Both the position numbers and the translations under genes were made by a program. A stretch of DNA of 64,000 nt from Thermoanaerobaculia bacterium. GTDB lineage: Bacteria; Acidobacteriota; Thermoanaerobaculia; Gp7-AA8. Within the stretch, counting starts at the first letter, position 1. Every line of letters starts with the position of its first letter. Shown piece after piece: positions 12,497 through 60,432 of this stretch. The stretch lies in the NCBI GenBank assembly GCA_038244715.1, contig JBBRTE010000011.1:75386-139385 (forward strand), written 5' to 3'. The notes under the pieces were generated by a model, which saw only the letters and a list, made by a program, of their open reading frames with translations, had not been told where the DNA came from and did not search any database.

Positions 12497-12934
12497 CTAC
12501 AACCTGGCCAGCTGCTCCTTCGGATACGCCCGCGGATCGACCTTCGGATGCGCTTCCGCGATCCGGCCGCTCTCGTCGATCAGGTACGCGATGCGTCGGG
12601 CGTATTCATCTCTGGGAGAGTCCGCCGCGCCGTACGCGAGACCGATCGTCCGCCCCGTGTCGCAGAGCAGCGGGAAGGGAAAGTCGAACTTCTCCGCGAA
12701 CCGTTTGTTGGCCTCCGCGTCATCGAAGCTGACGCCGAGGATGGTGGTGTTCTTCGCTTCGTACTGCGCCATGAGGTCCCGGAACCCGGAACCCTCGGCC
12801 GTTCAGCCAGGGGTATCGGCCTTCGGATAGAACCAGAGCACGACCTTGCGTCCGCGCAGGTCGCGGAGCGAGACCTCTCTTCCGCGATGATCGGAAACCG
12901 AGAAGTCCGGGGCTTCGTCGCCAACCTTCAACAT
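12497..12934 (-). CDS. selenocysteine-containing peroxiredoxin (Bcp/PrxQ family). An in-frame UGA at 12803-12805 replaces the peroxidatic Cys.
   Basis: Two ORFs in the supplied track (12803-13084 and 12497-12772) share one frame and are separated only by TGA. The joined product reads 'MLKVGDEAPDF...VVLWFYPKADTPG-U-TAEGSGFRDLMAQYEAKNTTILGVSFD...', which has the canonical Bcp active site 'FYPKA.TPGCT' with Sec at the Cys position. Confidence 0.7.
12773..12796 (-). promoter_or_regulatory. candidate bacterial SECIS hairpin downstream of the Prx UGA
   Basis: The mRNA sequence GAGGGUUCCGG-GUU-CCGGGACCUC forms an 8-9 bp stem (with G-U wobbles) and a GU-containing apical loop. The stem begins about 8 nt 3' of the UGA. 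Confidence 0.45.
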
Positions 12935-50578: not shown

Positions 50579-52396
50579 CTACGGCACCTCCTTCCAGAAG
50601 ACGCGGTGTAGCTGGAGGCCGAGGTCGCGAGGGTCGCCTCCGGGATGCGTATGCGAAAGGTTGATGACGTGATCGACTGACAGCACGAGTTCGTCCGGCG
50701 ACGTGCTGCGCGAGGTCACGATGTAGAACCGTTCTACGTCTGACGACTTCGGGACGAACTCGTCGATCGGCGCACCGTCGAAAATGACGGTGACCTTCGG
50801 CGCCGGCTCGCTCGCCAGCGGAAGCGTGACGCGAAATCCGAGTTGCGCTCGCCGCCCCAGCGGTGCCAGCGTCGTGTGGCCCTCCCTTCCCATCCATCGC
50901 CACCGCTCACCCTCGTCGCCCACTTCCTCGCCGTACCAGCCCTGACCTGGCTTCACCCACCCCGCGACCGGCACGACGGAGCTCTCGAAATACCGCCTGT
51001 TGAACACGGCCCACAGCGGCTTGTGCGGCCGGTGGAAGTTCATCGCCTGGGCTGATGAATTCGGCTGGTCAGCGACGAACACAGCGTTCCGGTCCGCAGG
51101 AACGGTCGACGGGTCGAACGCATCGGGCACAGGGATGATCGTGTAGTCCGTCAGGAAGTACGCGACGAACGGCTCCATGCCGCCCGCTGCATAGACCTTC
51201 CCTCCCCGCGGAACGTTCTGTTGAATCCATCGCACGGCGAGCACTGGCGGTGATTCCGTCATTCGGACCTGCCAGATCCCAGGCCACACCCAAAGGACGT
51301 AGCGTCCGATGACGAGAGCGGCGAAGAGCGCCTGCGCCACTGCAGCGAGGCGCTCCCGTGAACCTGTACGAGACCGCGAAGTGAGGAAGCACGCGGCCAC
51401 GTCCATGCCGTCCGCGGCCAGCAGCACATTCGCCGCGATGTAGCCGAGCGACAGCCGGCTGATGCCTGTCGGATTCAGAAGAAACCAGGCCAGCAGGAAG
51501 TTCGGCTCGAACGCCAGCACCGCGTCGAGGTGGGCGCGCCGCGGACGAGCCAATGCCAGCAGCGTGAACGCAAACATCACCGTCGATGCGGCCCGAGACT
51601 CGAATGGATCAAAGAGAAAGTTGCGCAACAGGAACCGCATCGGAATGCGCTCCGGATTCAACGCGCCGTCGACCGTGGCCACGTAATGCTGATGCCACTT
51701 CGTCGCAGAGATGAAGTCCCCGACCCCCGTCAGTTCTGCAGCGATTCCATACCCCGCCAAGACCAGGACGACGATGAGCACAGTCCCTGTGATCGCATCC
51801 CGCCGAAGCCCCGAGCGCCATCGGCGCCACGACGCAACCATCCAGGGCCAGGCCAGCAGCACGTTCTGCGCACGCACCAGCATCGTCGCAGCGAAGAAAA
51901 CGCAACCCAGGATGTACGTCCACCGGCTGCGATCGTCGCGGAGAAGAAACGCGACGGCCGCCAGAGCCGTCACCAGCGCCAGCGTATCGGTGAATCCCGT
52001 ACCGCCCCAGTACCAGACGTTCGGCAAAAAGCTGAAGAGCAGTGCCGCGGTGAGGCATGTACGAAATCGGAAGCGCAGCGACCGCGCCAGCGCGACCATC
52101 GCGGGAAAGAGGAAGATCGATGCTCCGAAACTGACCGCGCGCAGAGCATGGAAGTCGTCGTGGAGAAACAGCCGAACGAGTTTCGCAAGAGCGAAGAAGA
52201 GGGGAAACCCGGGCGGATGCGGATGGTGCAGCGCGACGTCATAGTGCTGCAGCGCCGCAACGAACAACGCTTCGTCCCAGTCCCACATCGAATGGGAGAC
52301 GGCGACGACGCGCGTCAGGGCCACGAGACTGGCGAGAACGCCTACCGCCAGGCGCTGTTGCGATGTCAGCGGCGCGACCACGCCGCCCTGCATCAT
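50579..52396 (-). CDS. GT-C glycosyltransferase of the PMT/ArnT family (GT39/GT83-like; PMT_2 domain)
   Basis: At least 11 TM helices. The first periplasmic loop is 'SMWDWDEALFVAALQHY' (DE motif). The start could alternatively be at 52441. Confidence 0.7.
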   Translation of the reverse strand: MMQGGVVAPLTSQQRLAVGVLASLVALTRVVAVSHSMWDWDEALFVAALQHYDVALHHPHPPGFPLFFALAKLVRLFLHDDFHALRAVSFGASIFLFPAMVALARSLRFRFRTCLTAALLFSFLPNVWYWGGTGFTDTLALVTALAAVAFLLRDDRSRWTYILGCVFFAATMLVRAQNVLLAWPWMVASWRRWRSGLRRDAITGTVLIVVLVLAGYGIAAELTGVGDFISATKWHQHYVATVDGALNPERIPMRFLLRNFLFDPFESRAASTVMFAFTLLALARPRRAHLDAVLAFEPNFLLAWFLLNPTGISRLSLGYIAANVLLAADGMDVAACFLTSRSRTGSRERLAAVAQALFAALVIGRYVLWVWPGIWQVRMTESPPVLAVRWIQQNVPRGGKVYAAGGMEPFVAYFLTDYTIIPVPDAFDPSTVPADRNAVFVADQPNSSAQAMNFHRPHKPLWAVFNRRYFESSVVPVAGWVKPGQGWYGEEVGDEGERWRWMGREGHTTLAPLGRRAQLGFRVTLPLASEPAPKVTVIFDGAPIDEFVPKSSDVERFYIVTSRSTSPDELVLSVDHVINLSHTHPGGDPRDLGLQLHRVFWKEVP

Positions 52397-52455
52397 CCAC
52401 TGCTGACCACCGGCATCCGTCAAGCGGCACCATTCTCGCAAAATTCGTAGTGATC

Positions 52456-53505
52456 ATGCCGGGAAAGGGGGTCCGACGCCGCTGGAACCTCGACCTTCAC
52501 GGCATCCGCCGCGAAGGTAGCAAAGACTCAGAGTTCACCTATTGCAGCTCCCTAGGCGCCTCCATCGAGGACGAGAAGACGCTGGCCCGCATCCGCAAGC
52601 TTGGGATCCCGCCAGCCTGGCAGGACGTGCGCATCGCCCGCGGTGACGCTGCGCCACTGCAGGCGGTCGGCATCGACAAGAAGGGCCGCACGCAGTACCT
52701 CTATCACGCTCGCTTCCGGGCTCATCAGGAAGAGGAGAAGTTCAAGCGCGTCGTCGAGTTTGGCGAATCCCTTCCCGCTCTGAGGCGCCGCGTCCGCGCC
52801 GACCTCAAACGTCCTGACCTCGACCGCGACCACGTTCTCGCGGCCATCGTCCGCCTCATCGATCAAGGGTTCTTCCGCGTCGGTAACGACAAGAGTGCGC
52901 AGTCCGAGGCGACGTACGGATTGACAACGATCCGGAGCAAACATGTAACGCTCGAAGGATCCGTGATCCTCTTCGACTATGTCGGCAAGTGGAGAAAGAC
53001 GCAGAAGCGTGCGATCGAGGATGCAGAGGTCGCAACCGTCGTTCGCGACCTTCGCGAGCTGGGAGAAGCGGAGCTCTTCGCGTTCATCGACAACGGCAAA
53101 GTCCGCGATGTGAAGGACCGGCATGTGAACGACTACATCCAGTCGATCATCAGCAAGAACTTCACCGCGAAAGACTTTCGTACCTGGGCAGGCACCCTGC
53201 TCTGCTCCATCGCCCTCGGCATGGAAGGTCAGGGCTCGAGCAAGACCGAGCGGAAGCGTAAGATCAAGCTGGCGGTGCAGGCGACGGCCGAACGGCTGGG
53301 AAACACCCCGGCGGTCTGCCGATCGTCCTACATCTGTCCCCGCCTGCTGGACGAGTACATGGACGGCAAGCCGTTCGAGATGCTGCGCAAGCATCACAAG
53401 GGCTCGCCCGTCGTTCGGGTCGGCCTTTCGAAGGAAGAACGCGCACTCCTCAAGTTTCTCCGCGAGACGATCGCCGACCGCCGGCGCCGGCCGCGCGCCG
53501 CATAG
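52456..53505 (+). CDS. DNA topoisomerase IB (poxvirus-like bacterial TopIB)
   Basis: 'IRKLGIPPAWQDVRIA...IDKKGRTQYLYHARF...ATYGLTTI...RDVKDRHVNDY...FTAKDFRTWAGT...TPAVCRSSYI' gives the TopIB catalytic Arg/Lys/His and Tyr-containing C-terminus. The size is 349 aa. Confidence 0.8.
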   Translation: MPGKGVRRRWNLDLHGIRREGSKDSEFTYCSSLGASIEDEKTLARIRKLGIPPAWQDVRIARGDAAPLQAVGIDKKGRTQYLYHARFRAHQEEEKFKRVVEFGESLPALRRRVRADLKRPDLDRDHVLAAIVRLIDQGFFRVGNDKSAQSEATYGLTTIRSKHVTLEGSVILFDYVGKWRKTQKRAIEDAEVATVVRDLRELGEAELFAFIDNGKVRDVKDRHVNDYIQSIISKNFTAKDFRTWAGTLLCSIALGMEGQGSSKTERKRKIKLAVQATAERLGNTPAVCRSSYICPRLLDEYMDGKPFEMLRKHHKGSPVVRVGLSKEERALLKFLRETIADRRRRPRAA

Positions 53506-57328: not shown

Positions 57329-58060
57329 GTGGGCGATGCCTCCGAGTTTTCCTTCCCCGTCCGCGGCGTTCTGAAGGCCTACCGGTGGCGACGGATCGAT
57401 CCCATCCCCTGGACACCGCTACGGAAACCGCTGGCCGAGGCGACGGTGGCAGTCGTTTCCACCGCAGGGCTGGTATTGCCGGACCAGGCTCCATTCGATG
57501 AATCGATCCTGGGCGGTGACAGCAGCTTTCGTGTCATCGGCGGCCAGACGGATATCGCAACGCTGATCGATACGCACCGCAGCAGGAGCTTCGACCACGC
57601 GGGAATTCGCTCCGATCCCAATCTGGCGTTTCCACTCGATCGCGTGCGGGAGATGGCCGCGGAGCAGCGGATCGGCAGCGTCAGCAAGAACCATCTCTCA
57701 TTCATGGGATCGATCCCGGCACCGGGAAGGCTGATGCGACACTCGGCCCCGGTTGCAGCGCAACACCTGGTCGATTGCGGGGTGGACGTCGCGCTCCTAG
57801 TTCCGGTGTGACCCATGTGCAATCAGACGGTCTGTCTGATCGCCGCAGAGCTCGAGCGACGGGGCATCACCACCGTCTGCCTCATGCTTCTTCGCGAGGT
57901 CGCGGAGAAAGTCCGCCCACCTCGGGCGCTTTTCGTCCCGTTCCCGCACGGATACCCGCTCGGTAAACCCAACGACCCCGGCACGCAGCGACGCGTCGTC
58001 GAGGCGGCACTGGCGCTGACGGAGATGGATTCCATGGCGCCGCTGCTCGTTGATCTGTGA
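57329..58060 (+). CDS. small GrdB/PrdB-family selenoprotein (glycine/betaine/sarcosine/D-proline reductase protein-B-like) with Sec in a UxxCxxC motif. The in-frame UGA is at 57809-57811.
   Basis: ORFs 57329-57811 and 57815-58060 share a frame and are joined by TGA. The joined product is '...DCGVDVALLVPV-U-PMCNQTVCLIAAELERRGITTVCLML...'. This parallels the GrdB/PrdB Sec region, recalled from memory as '...VILTST-U-GTCTRCGATMVKEIERAGIPVV' and not checked. Confidence 0.65.
57822..57840 (+). promoter_or_regulatory. candidate bacterial SECIS hairpin (AUCAGAC-GGUCU-GUCUGAU) starting 11 nt 3' of the UGA
   Basis: Perfect 7-bp stem with a 5-nt apical loop containing GGU, and canonical spacing from the UGA. 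Confidence 0.5.
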
Positions 58061-58102: not shown

Positions 58103-58987
58103 TCACACCTTCTTCTCGGCACGAACCTCGAGCATCCCCTTGCGCCGCCGCACGTCGAAGCAGCGAGCGGGATAGGTTGTCGGGCCGTTGATCACGTGAC
58201 CATCCTCGAGGGCCAACTCGGACCCGTGCCAGGGGCACTGGATGGCGTCGCCGACGATCTTCCCTTCGTTGAGAGGGCCGCCGAGGTGGGGACAGGTGTT
58301 CGTGAGTGCAAAGTTGCCCGTGCCGTGTTTGACGAGGACGATCGCCGTCTCCTCGATGTCCACTCGCATCGGTGTGTCCTCGGCGAGTTTCGCCTCCTCG
58401 ATGGCGCCGTGGAAATGCGCCGGCTGTCCGGCGCCGGCAGTCGCGGTGTGATCGACCCCGACCTGCTCGCCGAAGACCAGATGACCACCGAGATATGCAG
58501 ACGCACCGGAGATGGCGAAGCCGAGCATCGAGAGCGCCACTGCCTTCGAGCGCTGCTTCTTCCGGCGGCGCATGATCAGTGACGACGCGTAGAGTGCGGT
58601 CGCGCCGACGTTGAGAAGCCCGTGGAGGAGTCCGATCGTCTTTGCCCGGCCATCCGTCTCCGACCAGTCCGTCGCGCCGGTGACCGCCGCGCCGACGGCA
58701 CCGGCGAGCCCGAGGGCGATCGCGACATCAGCACCTCCCTCGAGATGGGAACGGCCGCTGAGTGTGCCAATCGCGTCGAGCACCATGGCGACCGTCCAAG
58801 CACCGACGGGGATGTCGGTCAGCACGGGATGCAACGGATGACCGAGCCAGGTGCCGTGAAGCGCGTTCTTGATCGCCTGACCCGCTTCGCCAGGAAACAG
58901 CTGGTGGATCGCCTGGGAAATGGGATCGGCGGCGGCCTCGAGCCAATCCTGCTTCGCAATCGCGTCGAAAATCACTTCATTGCTCAT
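58103..58987 (-). CDS. DUF2231-like membrane domain fused to a Rieske [2Fe-2S] domain
   Basis: N-terminal 'HPLHPVLTDIPVGAW' membrane domain. The C-terminal Rieske boxes are 'CPHLGGPL' and 'CPWHGSEL'. The start is at 'MSNEVIFD'. Confidence 0.7.
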   Translation of the reverse strand: MSNEVIFDAIAKQDWLEAAADPISQAIHQLFPGEAGQAIKNALHGTWLGHPLHPVLTDIPVGAWTVAMVLDAIGTLSGRSHLEGGADVAIALGLAGAVGAAVTGATDWSETDGRAKTIGLLHGLLNVGATALYASSLIMRRRKKQRSKAVALSMLGFAISGASAYLGGHLVFGEQVGVDHTATAGAGQPAHFHGAIEEAKLAEDTPMRVDIEETAIVLVKHGTGNFALTNTCPHLGGPLNEGKIVGDAIQCPWHGSELALEDGHVINGPTTYPARCFDVRRRKGMLEVRAEKKV

Positions 58988-59045
58988 GGGAGACGCGAGC
59001 GCAAGAGCGATGCCGGGGGGAACTCGTCGAAGAACCCTTTCGCGT

Positions 59046-59828
59046 CTACCTCTGGTGCGTACCGCAGAAATACGTCGTTCTGCCGAACACGACCGTGCGC
59101 TGGATCGTGCCGCCGCAGCGCGGACAACGTTCGCCTTCCTCGCGGTGCGGGATGAGGTAGCGGGACGGATAGTCGCCACCGCCGGACTTGAACGTGATCG
59201 CTTCCCTGAGGATGGCGCGCATGCCGGCATGGATCGCTTTCACCTCGACATCCGACAGCGTATCGACCGCACGGCGGGGATGGATCGACGCACGGTAGAG
59301 CGTCTCATCGACGTAGAGATTCCCGAGCCCGGCGATGATCTCCTGGGACATCAACAGGGATTTCACGGCGCCGCGCCGTCCAGCCACGATCCGGCGAAAT
59401 CGGGAGAGGCGGAAGCCGGGATCGAGCGGGTCGGGGCCGAGGTGATGCTCGAGGATGAAGTGGTCGGGATCGGGTGTGAGGTCGACGACACCGAAGAGGC
59501 GCATATCGTCGTACGCCAGGTGCGCGCCATTCTGGAATTCGAACACGACCCGCGCGAAGCGGGGCTGGTCCTCCGCACTTCGGTAGTACAAGAGATCGCC
59601 GCTCATGCCGAAGTGCAGGTGCAGCCACGCCGCTCCGGCGGCCACGAACAGATGCTTACCGTGGCGGCGGGTCTCCGTGAACATCGTACCGGTCATCGCC
59701 TTTGAAAACAGCGTCTTGCGGACGCCGAGGATGCGCTCGTCGAGCACGCGGACACGGCGAACGGGCTGGTGCAGAGCATGATCCGCGAAGTAGCGGCGGT
59801 AGAGCTCGACCTCCGGAAGCTCCGGCAT
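59046..59828 (-). CDS. mutM: formamidopyrimidine-DNA glycosylase / Nei family (Fpg-like)
   Basis: N-terminal 'MPELPEVE' with catalytic Pro2/Glu3. H2TH region. C-terminal zinc finger 'CPRCGGTIQRTVVFGRTTYFCGTHQ'. Confidence 0.75.
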   Translation of the reverse strand: MPELPEVELYRRYFADHALHQPVRRVRVLDERILGVRKTLFSKAMTGTMFTETRRHGKHLFVAAGAAWLHLHFGMSGDLLYYRSAEDQPRFARVVFEFQNGAHLAYDDMRLFGVVDLTPDPDHFILEHHLGPDPLDPGFRLSRFRRIVAGRRGAVKSLLMSQEIIAGLGNLYVDETLYRASIHPRRAVDTLSDVEVKAIHAGMRAILREAITFKSGGGDYPSRYLIPHREEGERCPRCGGTIQRTVVFGRTTYFCGTHQR

Positions 59829-59874
59829 GGTTGCCAAGTGTACGATGCGGAAAATTCAAAGCGAGGAAAAACGT

Positions 59875-60432
59875 ATGGCGCGCGTTGCTGATGCGGAAGT
59901 GAGCCAACTCGATCGATCCATCCAGGCAGTCCTCGACGCGCAGGCGAAGCAGTGGGGAGCACCGCTGCTGAATCATCTCGTCTACGCGCGCCGCCCCTCG
60001 ATCTTCAAGGGCGTGCGGATGATGTGGAGTGGTCTGGGCACGTCGGGGCTGATCGACGGACGGCTGGCCGCCCTGGTCAACCGGCGCGTCGCCTTTCTGA
60101 ACGGTTGCGAGTTCTGACAGGACATCAACGCTGCGGTCGGCAGCGCACTGGGAATCGCGGATGAAAAGCTGTTGTCCCTGGCGGACTGGCGGTCGTCGCC
60201 CCTGTTCGACGACCTCGAGCAGCTCGTGCTGGAGTTCGCAGACGCGATGACGATCACCGGAAGCGACGTTTCGGACGCGCTGTTTGCGCGGATTCGGGAA
60301 CGCTTCGATGACGATACGATCGTCGAGCTGACAGAGATCGTGGCGTGGGAAAACGCCTCGTCGAAATTCAATCGGGCTCTCAGGATTCCGTCGCAGAACC
60401 TGTGGCGGCGGGAAGCTACGGCGAAGGATTAG
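59875..60432 (+). CDS. AhpD-like / carboxymuconolactone decarboxylase-family selenoprotein with a CxxU redox motif. The in-frame UGA is at 60115-60117.
   Basis: ORFs 59827-60117 and 60172-60432 share a frame and are joined by TGA. The product is '...RVAFLNGCEF-U-QDINAAVGSALGI...'. This matches the AhpD 'NGCxxCxxxH' core with Sec at the second Cys. The start was chosen at 'MARVAD', which has the RBS GAGGAAAAA. The longer ORF would overlap the fpg start. Confidence 0.65.
60130..60144 (+). promoter_or_regulatory. candidate bacterial SECIS hairpin (GCUGC-GGUCG-GCAGC) 12 nt 3' of the UGA
   Basis: 5-bp GC-rich stem with a GGUCG apical loop. It could extend with flanking pairs. Confidence 0.45.

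Follow-up and report, generated by a model that had tools for sequence, protein, structure and literature searches.

AhpD-like selenoproteins, which carry selenocysteine (Sec) in a CxxU redox motif, were described in 2005 from the Sargasso Sea by Zhang, Fomenko and Gladyshev, within COG2128/YciW (PMC1088965). In Global Ocean Sampling (GOS) data, they count among the most abundant prokaryotic selenoprotein families, together with peroxiredoxin (Prx; TxxU) and PrdB (UxxC) (PMC2398784), and they are listed in recent reviews (PMC9312934, PMC13188914). Here, we analyze a gene of this kind in a 64,000-nucleotide stretch of contig JBBRTE010000011.1 from a Thermoanaerobaculia bacterium; we call the whole stretch the window and use its own numbering. 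The gene, at 59875-60432 on the forward (+) strand, is real and already known in type, since AhpD-like CxxU selenoproteins have been on record since 2005 and its exact family already has a curated model. Its product shares with the 2005 family and with the GOS families “AhpD-like 1/2” the CMD/AhpD fold, Sec at the second position of the CxxC motif, and co-occurrence with Prx and PrdB selenoproteins. However, those families were described mainly from marine metagenomes, whereas the clade of the window protein is from Acidobacteriota (Thermoanaerobaculia) of soil and groundwater, with a few other phyla.

On the + strand, an open reading frame (ORF) whose start may be ATG 59827 or ATG 59875 reaches a TGA at 60115-60117; past it, the same frame remains open as far as a TAG at 60430-60432. 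An earlier note on this sequence had placed the TGA between two same-frame ORFs and proposed a read-through product containing NGCEF-U-QDIN. Both points can be read directly from the sequence: the ORF 59827/59875..60117 is followed by the segment 60118..60432, and the translation across the junction is ...RRVAFLNGCEF-U-QDINAAVGS... (in longer form ...NRRVAFLNGCEF-U-QDINAAVGSALG...), with VAFLNGCEF-U-QDINAAVGSALGIADEK as the Sec-spanning peptide. From the comparisons described below, we hold with high confidence that this is a genuine Sec-encoding AhpD-like gene, predicted to comprise the following features.

59875..60432, + strand: coding sequence of the putative AhpD-like (YciW-related) selenoprotein; 185 codons, Sec as codon 81, TAG stop at 60430-60432
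60106..60117, + strand: redox motif C78-E-F-U81 (TGC GAG TTC TGA), aligning with the CxxC of 2gmy and 2o4d
60115..60117, + strand: UGA predicted to be read as Sec; TGA in 93/93 loci
60129..60145, + strand: hairpin of the bacterial selenocysteine insertion sequence (bSECIS) type, CGCUGC-GGUCG-GCAGCG; 6-bp stem, 5-nt loop at 60135-60139
59863..59866, + strand: Shine-Dalgarno-like GAGG, 8 nt 5' of ATG 59875, read from the sequence
59836..59848, + strand: conserved intergenic motif AAGTGTACGATGC, between the divergent gene fpg and the selenoprotein gene

The two sides of the TGA belong together. For protein searches, Sec81 was replaced by Cys in the 185-residue product from ATG 59875. This product has a single match to Pfam CMD (PF02627), at residues 50-123, which crosses the TGA and scores 28.7 bits against a cut-off of 23. 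It also matches NCBIfam NF053654.1 (GroundWater_YciW, YciW-related (seleno)protein) with an E value of 1e-92 and 308.7 bits (303.3 bits with X at the Sec site), in one colinear, full-length stretch that pairs profile positions 1-179 with residues 1-179 of the protein. The Sec lies at the same CxxU position as in the curated family, the CEF-U motif is invariant in orthologues, and the window protein differs from the profile in having 6 extra C-terminal residues. Thus, the alignment to AhpD/CMD proteins that the earlier note had called for puts the UGA on the redox motif, and the two halves share one Pfam and one NCBIfam match. By sequence, the family is most probably NF053654, which is already curated as containing selenoproteins; its name, GroundWater_YciW, may point to a 2026 survey that covered groundwater metagenome-assembled genomes.

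Structural comparisons point the same way. Sequence matches in the PDB include Atu0492 (2gmy, E 2e-14), Pseudomonas aeruginosa PA0269 (2o4d/7xw1/2ijc, ~5e-11), and the Deinococcus radiodurans AhpD (6k40), and the CxxC of 2gmy, 2o4d, 7xw1, and 6k40 aligns exactly on C78-E-F-U81. The fold itself was assessed by proxy, using the AlphaFold model of a natural Cys homologue (protein P0010) that is 67% identical to the window protein. This model is all-helical, with a mean predicted local distance difference test (pLDDT) score of 70.6 and block means of 75-96 over residues 61-170. It matches 7xw1, 2ijc, 2gmy, 6k40, and 6ohj with a probability of 1.00 and template modeling (TM) scores of 0.79-0.87, normalized to the target. 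Altogether, both halves are predicted, from sequence and from this model, to form one protein of the CMD/AhpD fold.

How constant is the UGA itself? We assembled a set of orthologous loci from one genome per GTDB species, which gave 16 loci, and from a metagenome scan that added 80 more, mostly from soil. The peptide patterns used in these scans lay outside the Sec site or favored Cys codons there, so that the set carries no bias toward TGA. Loci from the genome scan come from Thermoanaerobaculia and other Acidobacteriota, Pyrinomonadaceae, Thermomicrobiales, and Eremiobacterota, and orthologue identity is 63-85% in 97 loci. Codon 81 is TGA in all 93 loci with a readable site, the window included. 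Cys (TGC) forms were found in two cases only, P0010/L097 (L097 2163-2777) and P0006/L098 (L098 258-800), and both are single uninterrupted ORFs. Upstream of the TGA, mean entropies at codon positions 1/2/3 are 0.50/0.42/1.34 bits, and on its downstream side they are 0.53/0.39/1.33 bits; therefore, the downstream half is translated in the same frame and under the same constraint as the upstream half.

A hairpin directly downstream would help to recode the UGA. The earlier note had described GCUGC-GGUCG-GCAGC 12 nt downstream of the UGA, and this core is found at 60130-60144; with one extra C-G pair, the hairpin occupies 60129-60145 and begins 11 nt after the UGA. Its minimum free energy (MFE) is -11.2 to -12 kcal/mol, and the distance from UGA to loop is 17 nt. 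A published bSECIS model asks for a loop of 3-9 nt, a stem of 4-16 bp, a G in the first two loop positions, a UGA-to-loop distance of 16-37 nt, and an MFE no higher than -7.5 kcal/mol (PMC13188914). The bSECIS check suggested in the earlier note thus comes out positive on every point of this model, with a spacing at its lower limit and a hairpin that is very short. Like the E. coli fdhF SECIS and the bSECIS consensus, the hairpin lies directly 3' of the UGA inside the coding sequence and presents G-U in its loop. The loop GGUC presumably resembles that of fdhF, and we take a 17-nt hairpin 11 nt after the UGA to match the minimal E. coli element.

Conservation of the hairpin is strong at the nucleotide level. 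At 53 well-conserved 4-fold codons, third-position entropy is 0.87-1.97 bits, the stem codons excepted: the Ala codon GCU has an entropy of 0.09 (89/90), and the Ser codon AGC has 0.31 (85/90). Elsewhere in these genes, GCU is not preferred for Ala. The stem codon for Gly, GGC, has 0.10 (78/79); with conservation in 88% of sequences, it narrowly misses the 53-codon set. Each of the five core pairs is intact in 84-85 of the 85 distinct sequences, the changes being six G-C to G-U and one C-A mismatch, and loop positions 2-3 (G60136, U60137) are invariant G-U across the same 85. At the sixth pair, 50 of these sequences have C-G, 12 U-A, and 2 U-G, and 21 are unpaired. Changes at loop positions 1 and 4 are coupled: among the 85 loci, 41 sequences read GGUCG, 38 read CGUGG/CGUGA, and only 3 read CGUCG. 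A CGUGG loop would allow positions 1 and 5 to pair, leaving a GUG triloop. The coupling may be due to the existence of two clades and not to any structural constraint.

The two Cys forms differ in what they retain of this element. P0010/L097 keeps the stem GCUGC...GCAGC and has lost the loop G, with GU changed to AU (GUG to AUG, Val to Met), and P0006/L098 has TGC with an intact hairpin. Their sequences suggest that both are recent Sec-to-Cys conversions with a decaying SECIS. We propose that UGA codon 81 would be recoded to Sec with the aid of the mRNA hairpin starting 11 nt downstream, whose loop G-U would be the kind of element recognized by the elongation factor SelB.

Several observations weigh against reading the locus as a member of this selenoprotein family with a functional bSECIS. 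The window protein scores 1.3 bits under the curated NF053654 equivalog cut-off of 310. Orthologues with 65-84% identity to it (tblastn) pass that cut-off (L002, L008, L012, L013, and L014, at 315-351 bits), and L016 scores 305.6. In single-sequence folding, at 63% G+C, the hairpin does not exceed shuffled sequence in stability (z 0.08 and -0.23). Because single-sequence stability does not discriminate, the case for the hairpin rests on its conservation. The stem is nearly invariant, so that compensatory covariation is limited to the sixth pair, where it is confounded by phylogeny. No Rfam SECIS family was matched near the site at gathering thresholds, or on 60090-60200 at E values up to 10. 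Finally, tRNA-Sec, selA, selB, and selD were not found within the 64-kb window; its ORFs of SelA, SelB, or SelD size are methylmalonyl-CoA mutase, a sigma-54 activator, an amidase, an MreB-like protein, serine hydroxymethyltransferase (SHMT), and others. A long lower stem in the single-sequence MFE fold was considered and rejected as unsupported, since the consensus fold of the 85 sequences consists of the 5-bp core only.

The position of the Sec bears on what the protein would do. C78-E-F-U81 also aligns with the CxxC of about 80 Cys relatives, so that the Cys homologues sought by the earlier note exist both among these and in 2gmy and 2o4d, and the second Cys of their CxxC is precisely where the UGA aligns. 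The matching motif of the P0010 model sits at a helix start. The earlier note had seen Sec in place of the resolving Cys of the CMD motif; the position holds, but the role assigned to it probably does not. In Mycobacterium tuberculosis AhpD, the second Cys (Cys133) attacks Cys61 of AhpC, and Cys130 is its partly buried partner (PMC6626918). Among the nearest Cys relatives of the window protein, four have lost the first Cys (SxxC/RxxC) yet keep the second, and the reverse occurs in one only. By analogy with M. tuberculosis Cys133, and because the SxxC/RxxC relatives keep the second Cys, Sec81 most likely replaces the attacking nucleophile, with Cys78 as the resolving partner. In the mechanism we propose, Sec81 would attack an oxidized substrate (a peroxiredoxin sulfenate or disulfide, another protein disulfide or sulfenate, or a hydroperoxide) to form a selenenylsulfide with it. 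Cys78 would then resolve the intermediate to give an internal Se-S bond, itself a selenenylsulfide, which a thiol reductant would re-reduce. We infer that the protein acts as a thiol/selenol oxidoreductase of oxidative-stress defense.

Does this make the protein an AhpD? Its likeness to M. tuberculosis AhpD (1knc/1gu9) and PA0269 (2o4d/7xw1) lies in the all-helical AhpD-like fold and the CxxC-type center at a helix start; it differs in having Sec for the second Cys and in lacking both the Glu/His relay and an adjacent ahpC. AhpD relays protons through a Glu (Glu118/Glu36) 12 residues before the first Cys and a His (His137/His55) 4 residues after the second (PMC3141380). These positions are Ala66 and Asn85 in the window protein, and across the clade N85 does not vary. 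As a structural match to the P0010 model, M. tuberculosis AhpD is only marginal (E 0.4-1). The classical AhpD-like model TIGR01926 matches the window protein weakly, at 24 bits against a cut-off of 81.8; therefore, the window protein belongs to a separate subfamily. We considered whether the relay was lost with the gain of Sec and its low-pKa selenol and rejected the idea, since the nearest Cys relatives, which are 30-52% identical, likewise carry N or G at +4 and lack a conserved Glu. Of the properties that define AhpD in the strict sense, the CxxC-type redox pair is present, and the proton relay and ahpC linkage are absent; across 98 loci, neither ahpC nor any other partner is consistently adjacent in all lineages, and the sole Prx in the window lies 47 kb from the gene. 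Thus, of the earlier label of an AhpD-like (CMD family) protein, the CMD/AhpD fold and the CxxU motif stand. The protein is AhpD-like in these respects and, because the Glu/His relay is missing, not AhpD in the strict sense. The specific substrate, argued here by analogy, is much less certain than the identity of the gene, and we regard the one proposed as tentative, at best about as likely as not.

A genuine selenoprotein of this family could also act outside AhpC/peroxiredoxin recycling, for example as a small-molecule reductase, among them reductive dehalogenases like the AhpD-fold Bmp8, or as an enzyme handling sulfur or selenium metabolites, as proposed for YciW-type proteins. The best structural match of the P0010 model is in fact the debrominase Bmp8 (6ohj/6ohi, E 1e-5), and the missing relay residues (Ala66, Asn85), the lack of an adjacent ahpC, and the absence of partner conservation across phyla all fit such a role. 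In addition, the clade is near-obligately Sec (93 TGA versus 2 TGC), suggesting selenium-dependent chemistry. However, identity to Bmp8 is only 23%, and PA0269 and Atu0492, which are closer in sequence, score similarly. PA0269 has weak peroxidase activity (PMC3141380), the window encodes a Sec-peroxiredoxin, the divergent neighbor fpg is an oxidative-damage repair gene, and no halogenase or organohalide genes were seen nearby. We consider this alternative unlikely, while giving it real weight.

A narrower form of the same idea is that the enzyme of the YciW-related clade truly requires selenium, for deiodinase-like reductive dehalogenation or another small-molecule reduction, and is not a peroxiredoxin reductase. 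Most bacterial selenoprotein families have many Cys homologues. The argument is that 93 TGA loci stand against 2 recent TGC conversions, that the relay is absent, and that the closest structural match is Bmp8. We find this improbable; if it were true, such an enzyme would be widespread in soil Acidobacteriota.

The remaining alternatives concern the UGA rather than the function, and here the preferred reading, recoding to Sec, is on much firmer ground. Under an alternative genetic code (4 or 25), or by near-cognate read-through with Trp or Cys, the TGA might specify a standard amino acid. Homologues in Joint Genome Institute (JGI) data lend this some color, since “full-length” entries (P0001-P0005, P0007, P0009, P0014, P0016, P0022, and P0025) show W at the Sec site, as in NGCEFWQDINAAV of P0001-P0005. 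However, these entries sit on contigs of about 1 kb, and the Trp is most likely an artefact of the gene caller falling back to genetic code 4. Annotated in this way, selenoproteins go unrecognized, and anyone looking for Cys homologues could be led astray. In the window, TGA serves as the normal stop of well-conserved genes (the Rieske, smpB, SHMT, and mutase genes), and in 21/93 orthologues it is the terminal stop of the selenoprotein gene itself. Other same-frame ORF pairs split by TGA in the window (24082; 30701, smpB/lpxC; 58103, the Rieske end) were examined and are ordinary gene ends. Codon 81 is aligned with a redox Cys, so that a Trp or Gly residue would leave no CxxC center, and the conserved hairpin matches the SECIS model. 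A standard amino acid at codon 81 is therefore highly improbable.

The TGA might instead be a nonsense mutation in a former Cys codon, or a sequencing or assembly error, that truncates the protein. Standard gene callers do split or truncate the gene, and many database entries are half-length, at 100-110 aa, but the same codon is TGA in 93 of 93 independent loci from several phyla, purifying selection is equal on both sides of it, and the downstream hairpin is conserved, so that we give a pseudogene or an error almost no credence. The last alternative, two separate small genes (an 80-aa product ending at the TGA and an independent ORF from TTG 60172), reflects the mechanical ORF list, which gives 59827-60117 and 60172-60432 separately, and can be set aside: the 18 codons from the TGA to TTG 60172 (QDINAAVGSALGIADEKL) are among the most conserved of the protein, one domain and one fold span the junction, no ribosome-binding site precedes 60172, and the rare Cys forms are single ORFs. 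TGA conservation, equal constraint on both sides, and TGA stops elsewhere together rule out the pseudogene, two-gene, and alternative-code readings.

The evidence also supports ATG 59875 as the start of the selenoprotein gene, because profile positions 1-179 of NF053654 align to residues 1-179 of the protein and all orthologues begin with MARV or MARI. The earlier note had chosen this internal ATG for its good ribosome-binding site, and the GAGG at 59863-59866 is indeed in place. It had also argued that this start removes an overlap with fpg, and this agrees with the true start of fpg (MPELPEVE) at 59828, which leaves 46 bp between that gene and ATG 59875. Not all orthologues have such a Shine-Dalgarno-like sequence; it is missing from others, whose intergenic region is about 20 bp long. 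The window has an insertion of about 24 nt in the fpg/selenoprotein intergenic region, and the GAGG lies inside it.

Consensus scans around the selenoprotein gene found no sigma-70 promoter and no intrinsic terminator. The intergenic motif AAGTGTACGATGC may be a candidate promoter or -10-like element. Its exact 12-mer, AAGTGTACGATG(C), occurs at the same position in 25 related loci (e.g., L002 2984-2995). In L002, L003, and L006, it ends 5 nt 5' of the ATG and the Shine-Dalgarno sequence is absent; in these three loci, the motif would fit a -10-like element (TACGAT) with a leaderless mRNA.

Two more genes in the window carry an in-frame TGA at a Sec position, as the earlier note implied in counting the AhpD-like gene as the third Sec protein here, and that count stands. 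These genes and the divergent neighbor are as follows.

12497-12934, - strand: BCP-type peroxiredoxin (WFYPKADTPG-U-TAEG), putative Sec protein; TGA 12805-12803 at the peroxidatic position; Pfam AhpC-TSA 118.9 bits
~57359-58060, + strand: PrdB/GrdB-like protein (LLVPV-U-PMC, UxxC), putative Sec protein; TGA 57809-57811; TIGR04483 117 bits, Pfam GRDB 31 bits
59046..59828, - strand: fpg (formamidopyrimidine-DNA glycosylase), divergent neighbor; TIGR00577, NF002211; Pfam Fapy_DNA_glyco, H2TH, zf-FPG

In both putative Sec genes, the TGA occupies the known Sec position of a known family, and the hairpin that follows has G-U in its loop. In the peroxiredoxin gene this hairpin is GGUUCCGG-GUU-CCGGGACC (z -2.0); in the PrdB-like gene, whose TIGR04483 score of 117 bits is below the cut-off of 300, it is AUCAGAC-GGUCU-GUCUGAU, starting 10 nt after the TGA. 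These two genes support Sec decoding in the organism. PrdB-like orthologues also occur in L004 and L010, about 2 kb from the AhpD-like gene.

The window neighbors of the selenoprotein gene are fpg, a Rieske/DUF2231 protein, a 90-aa ORF, and a TPR-AIM24 protein. Adjacency to fpg is kept in 36/98 loci, all in the Thermoanaerobaculia-like clade, and synteny with the Rieske, 90-aa, and TPR-AIM24 genes is likewise conserved only within that clade. Neighbors in other lineages vary, with an HD-domain protein in 9 loci, DUF1330 in 7, and a GntR-aminotransferase in 5. The Rieske/DUF2231 gene (58103-59230, -), which adjoins fpg and is syntenic with the selenoprotein gene in 21 loci, encodes a fusion of a DUF2231 membrane domain with a C-terminal Rieske [2Fe-2S] domain; its ORF start is probably set too far upstream, MSNEVIF being the likely start. 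Elsewhere, the window holds a type IB DNA topoisomerase (52135-53505, +; Pfam Topoisom_I and Top1B_N_bact), an enzyme that is uncommon in bacteria.

The AhpD-like selenoprotein gene opens no new question, and the main value of recognizing it is for annotation: assignment to NF053654 restores a complete redox enzyme where gene callers split or truncate the gene. Counting the genes for the Sec-peroxiredoxin and the PrdB-like protein as well, at least three predicted selenoproteins are encoded in 64 kb, which identifies this Thermoanaerobaculia-like soil bacterium as a selenium user.

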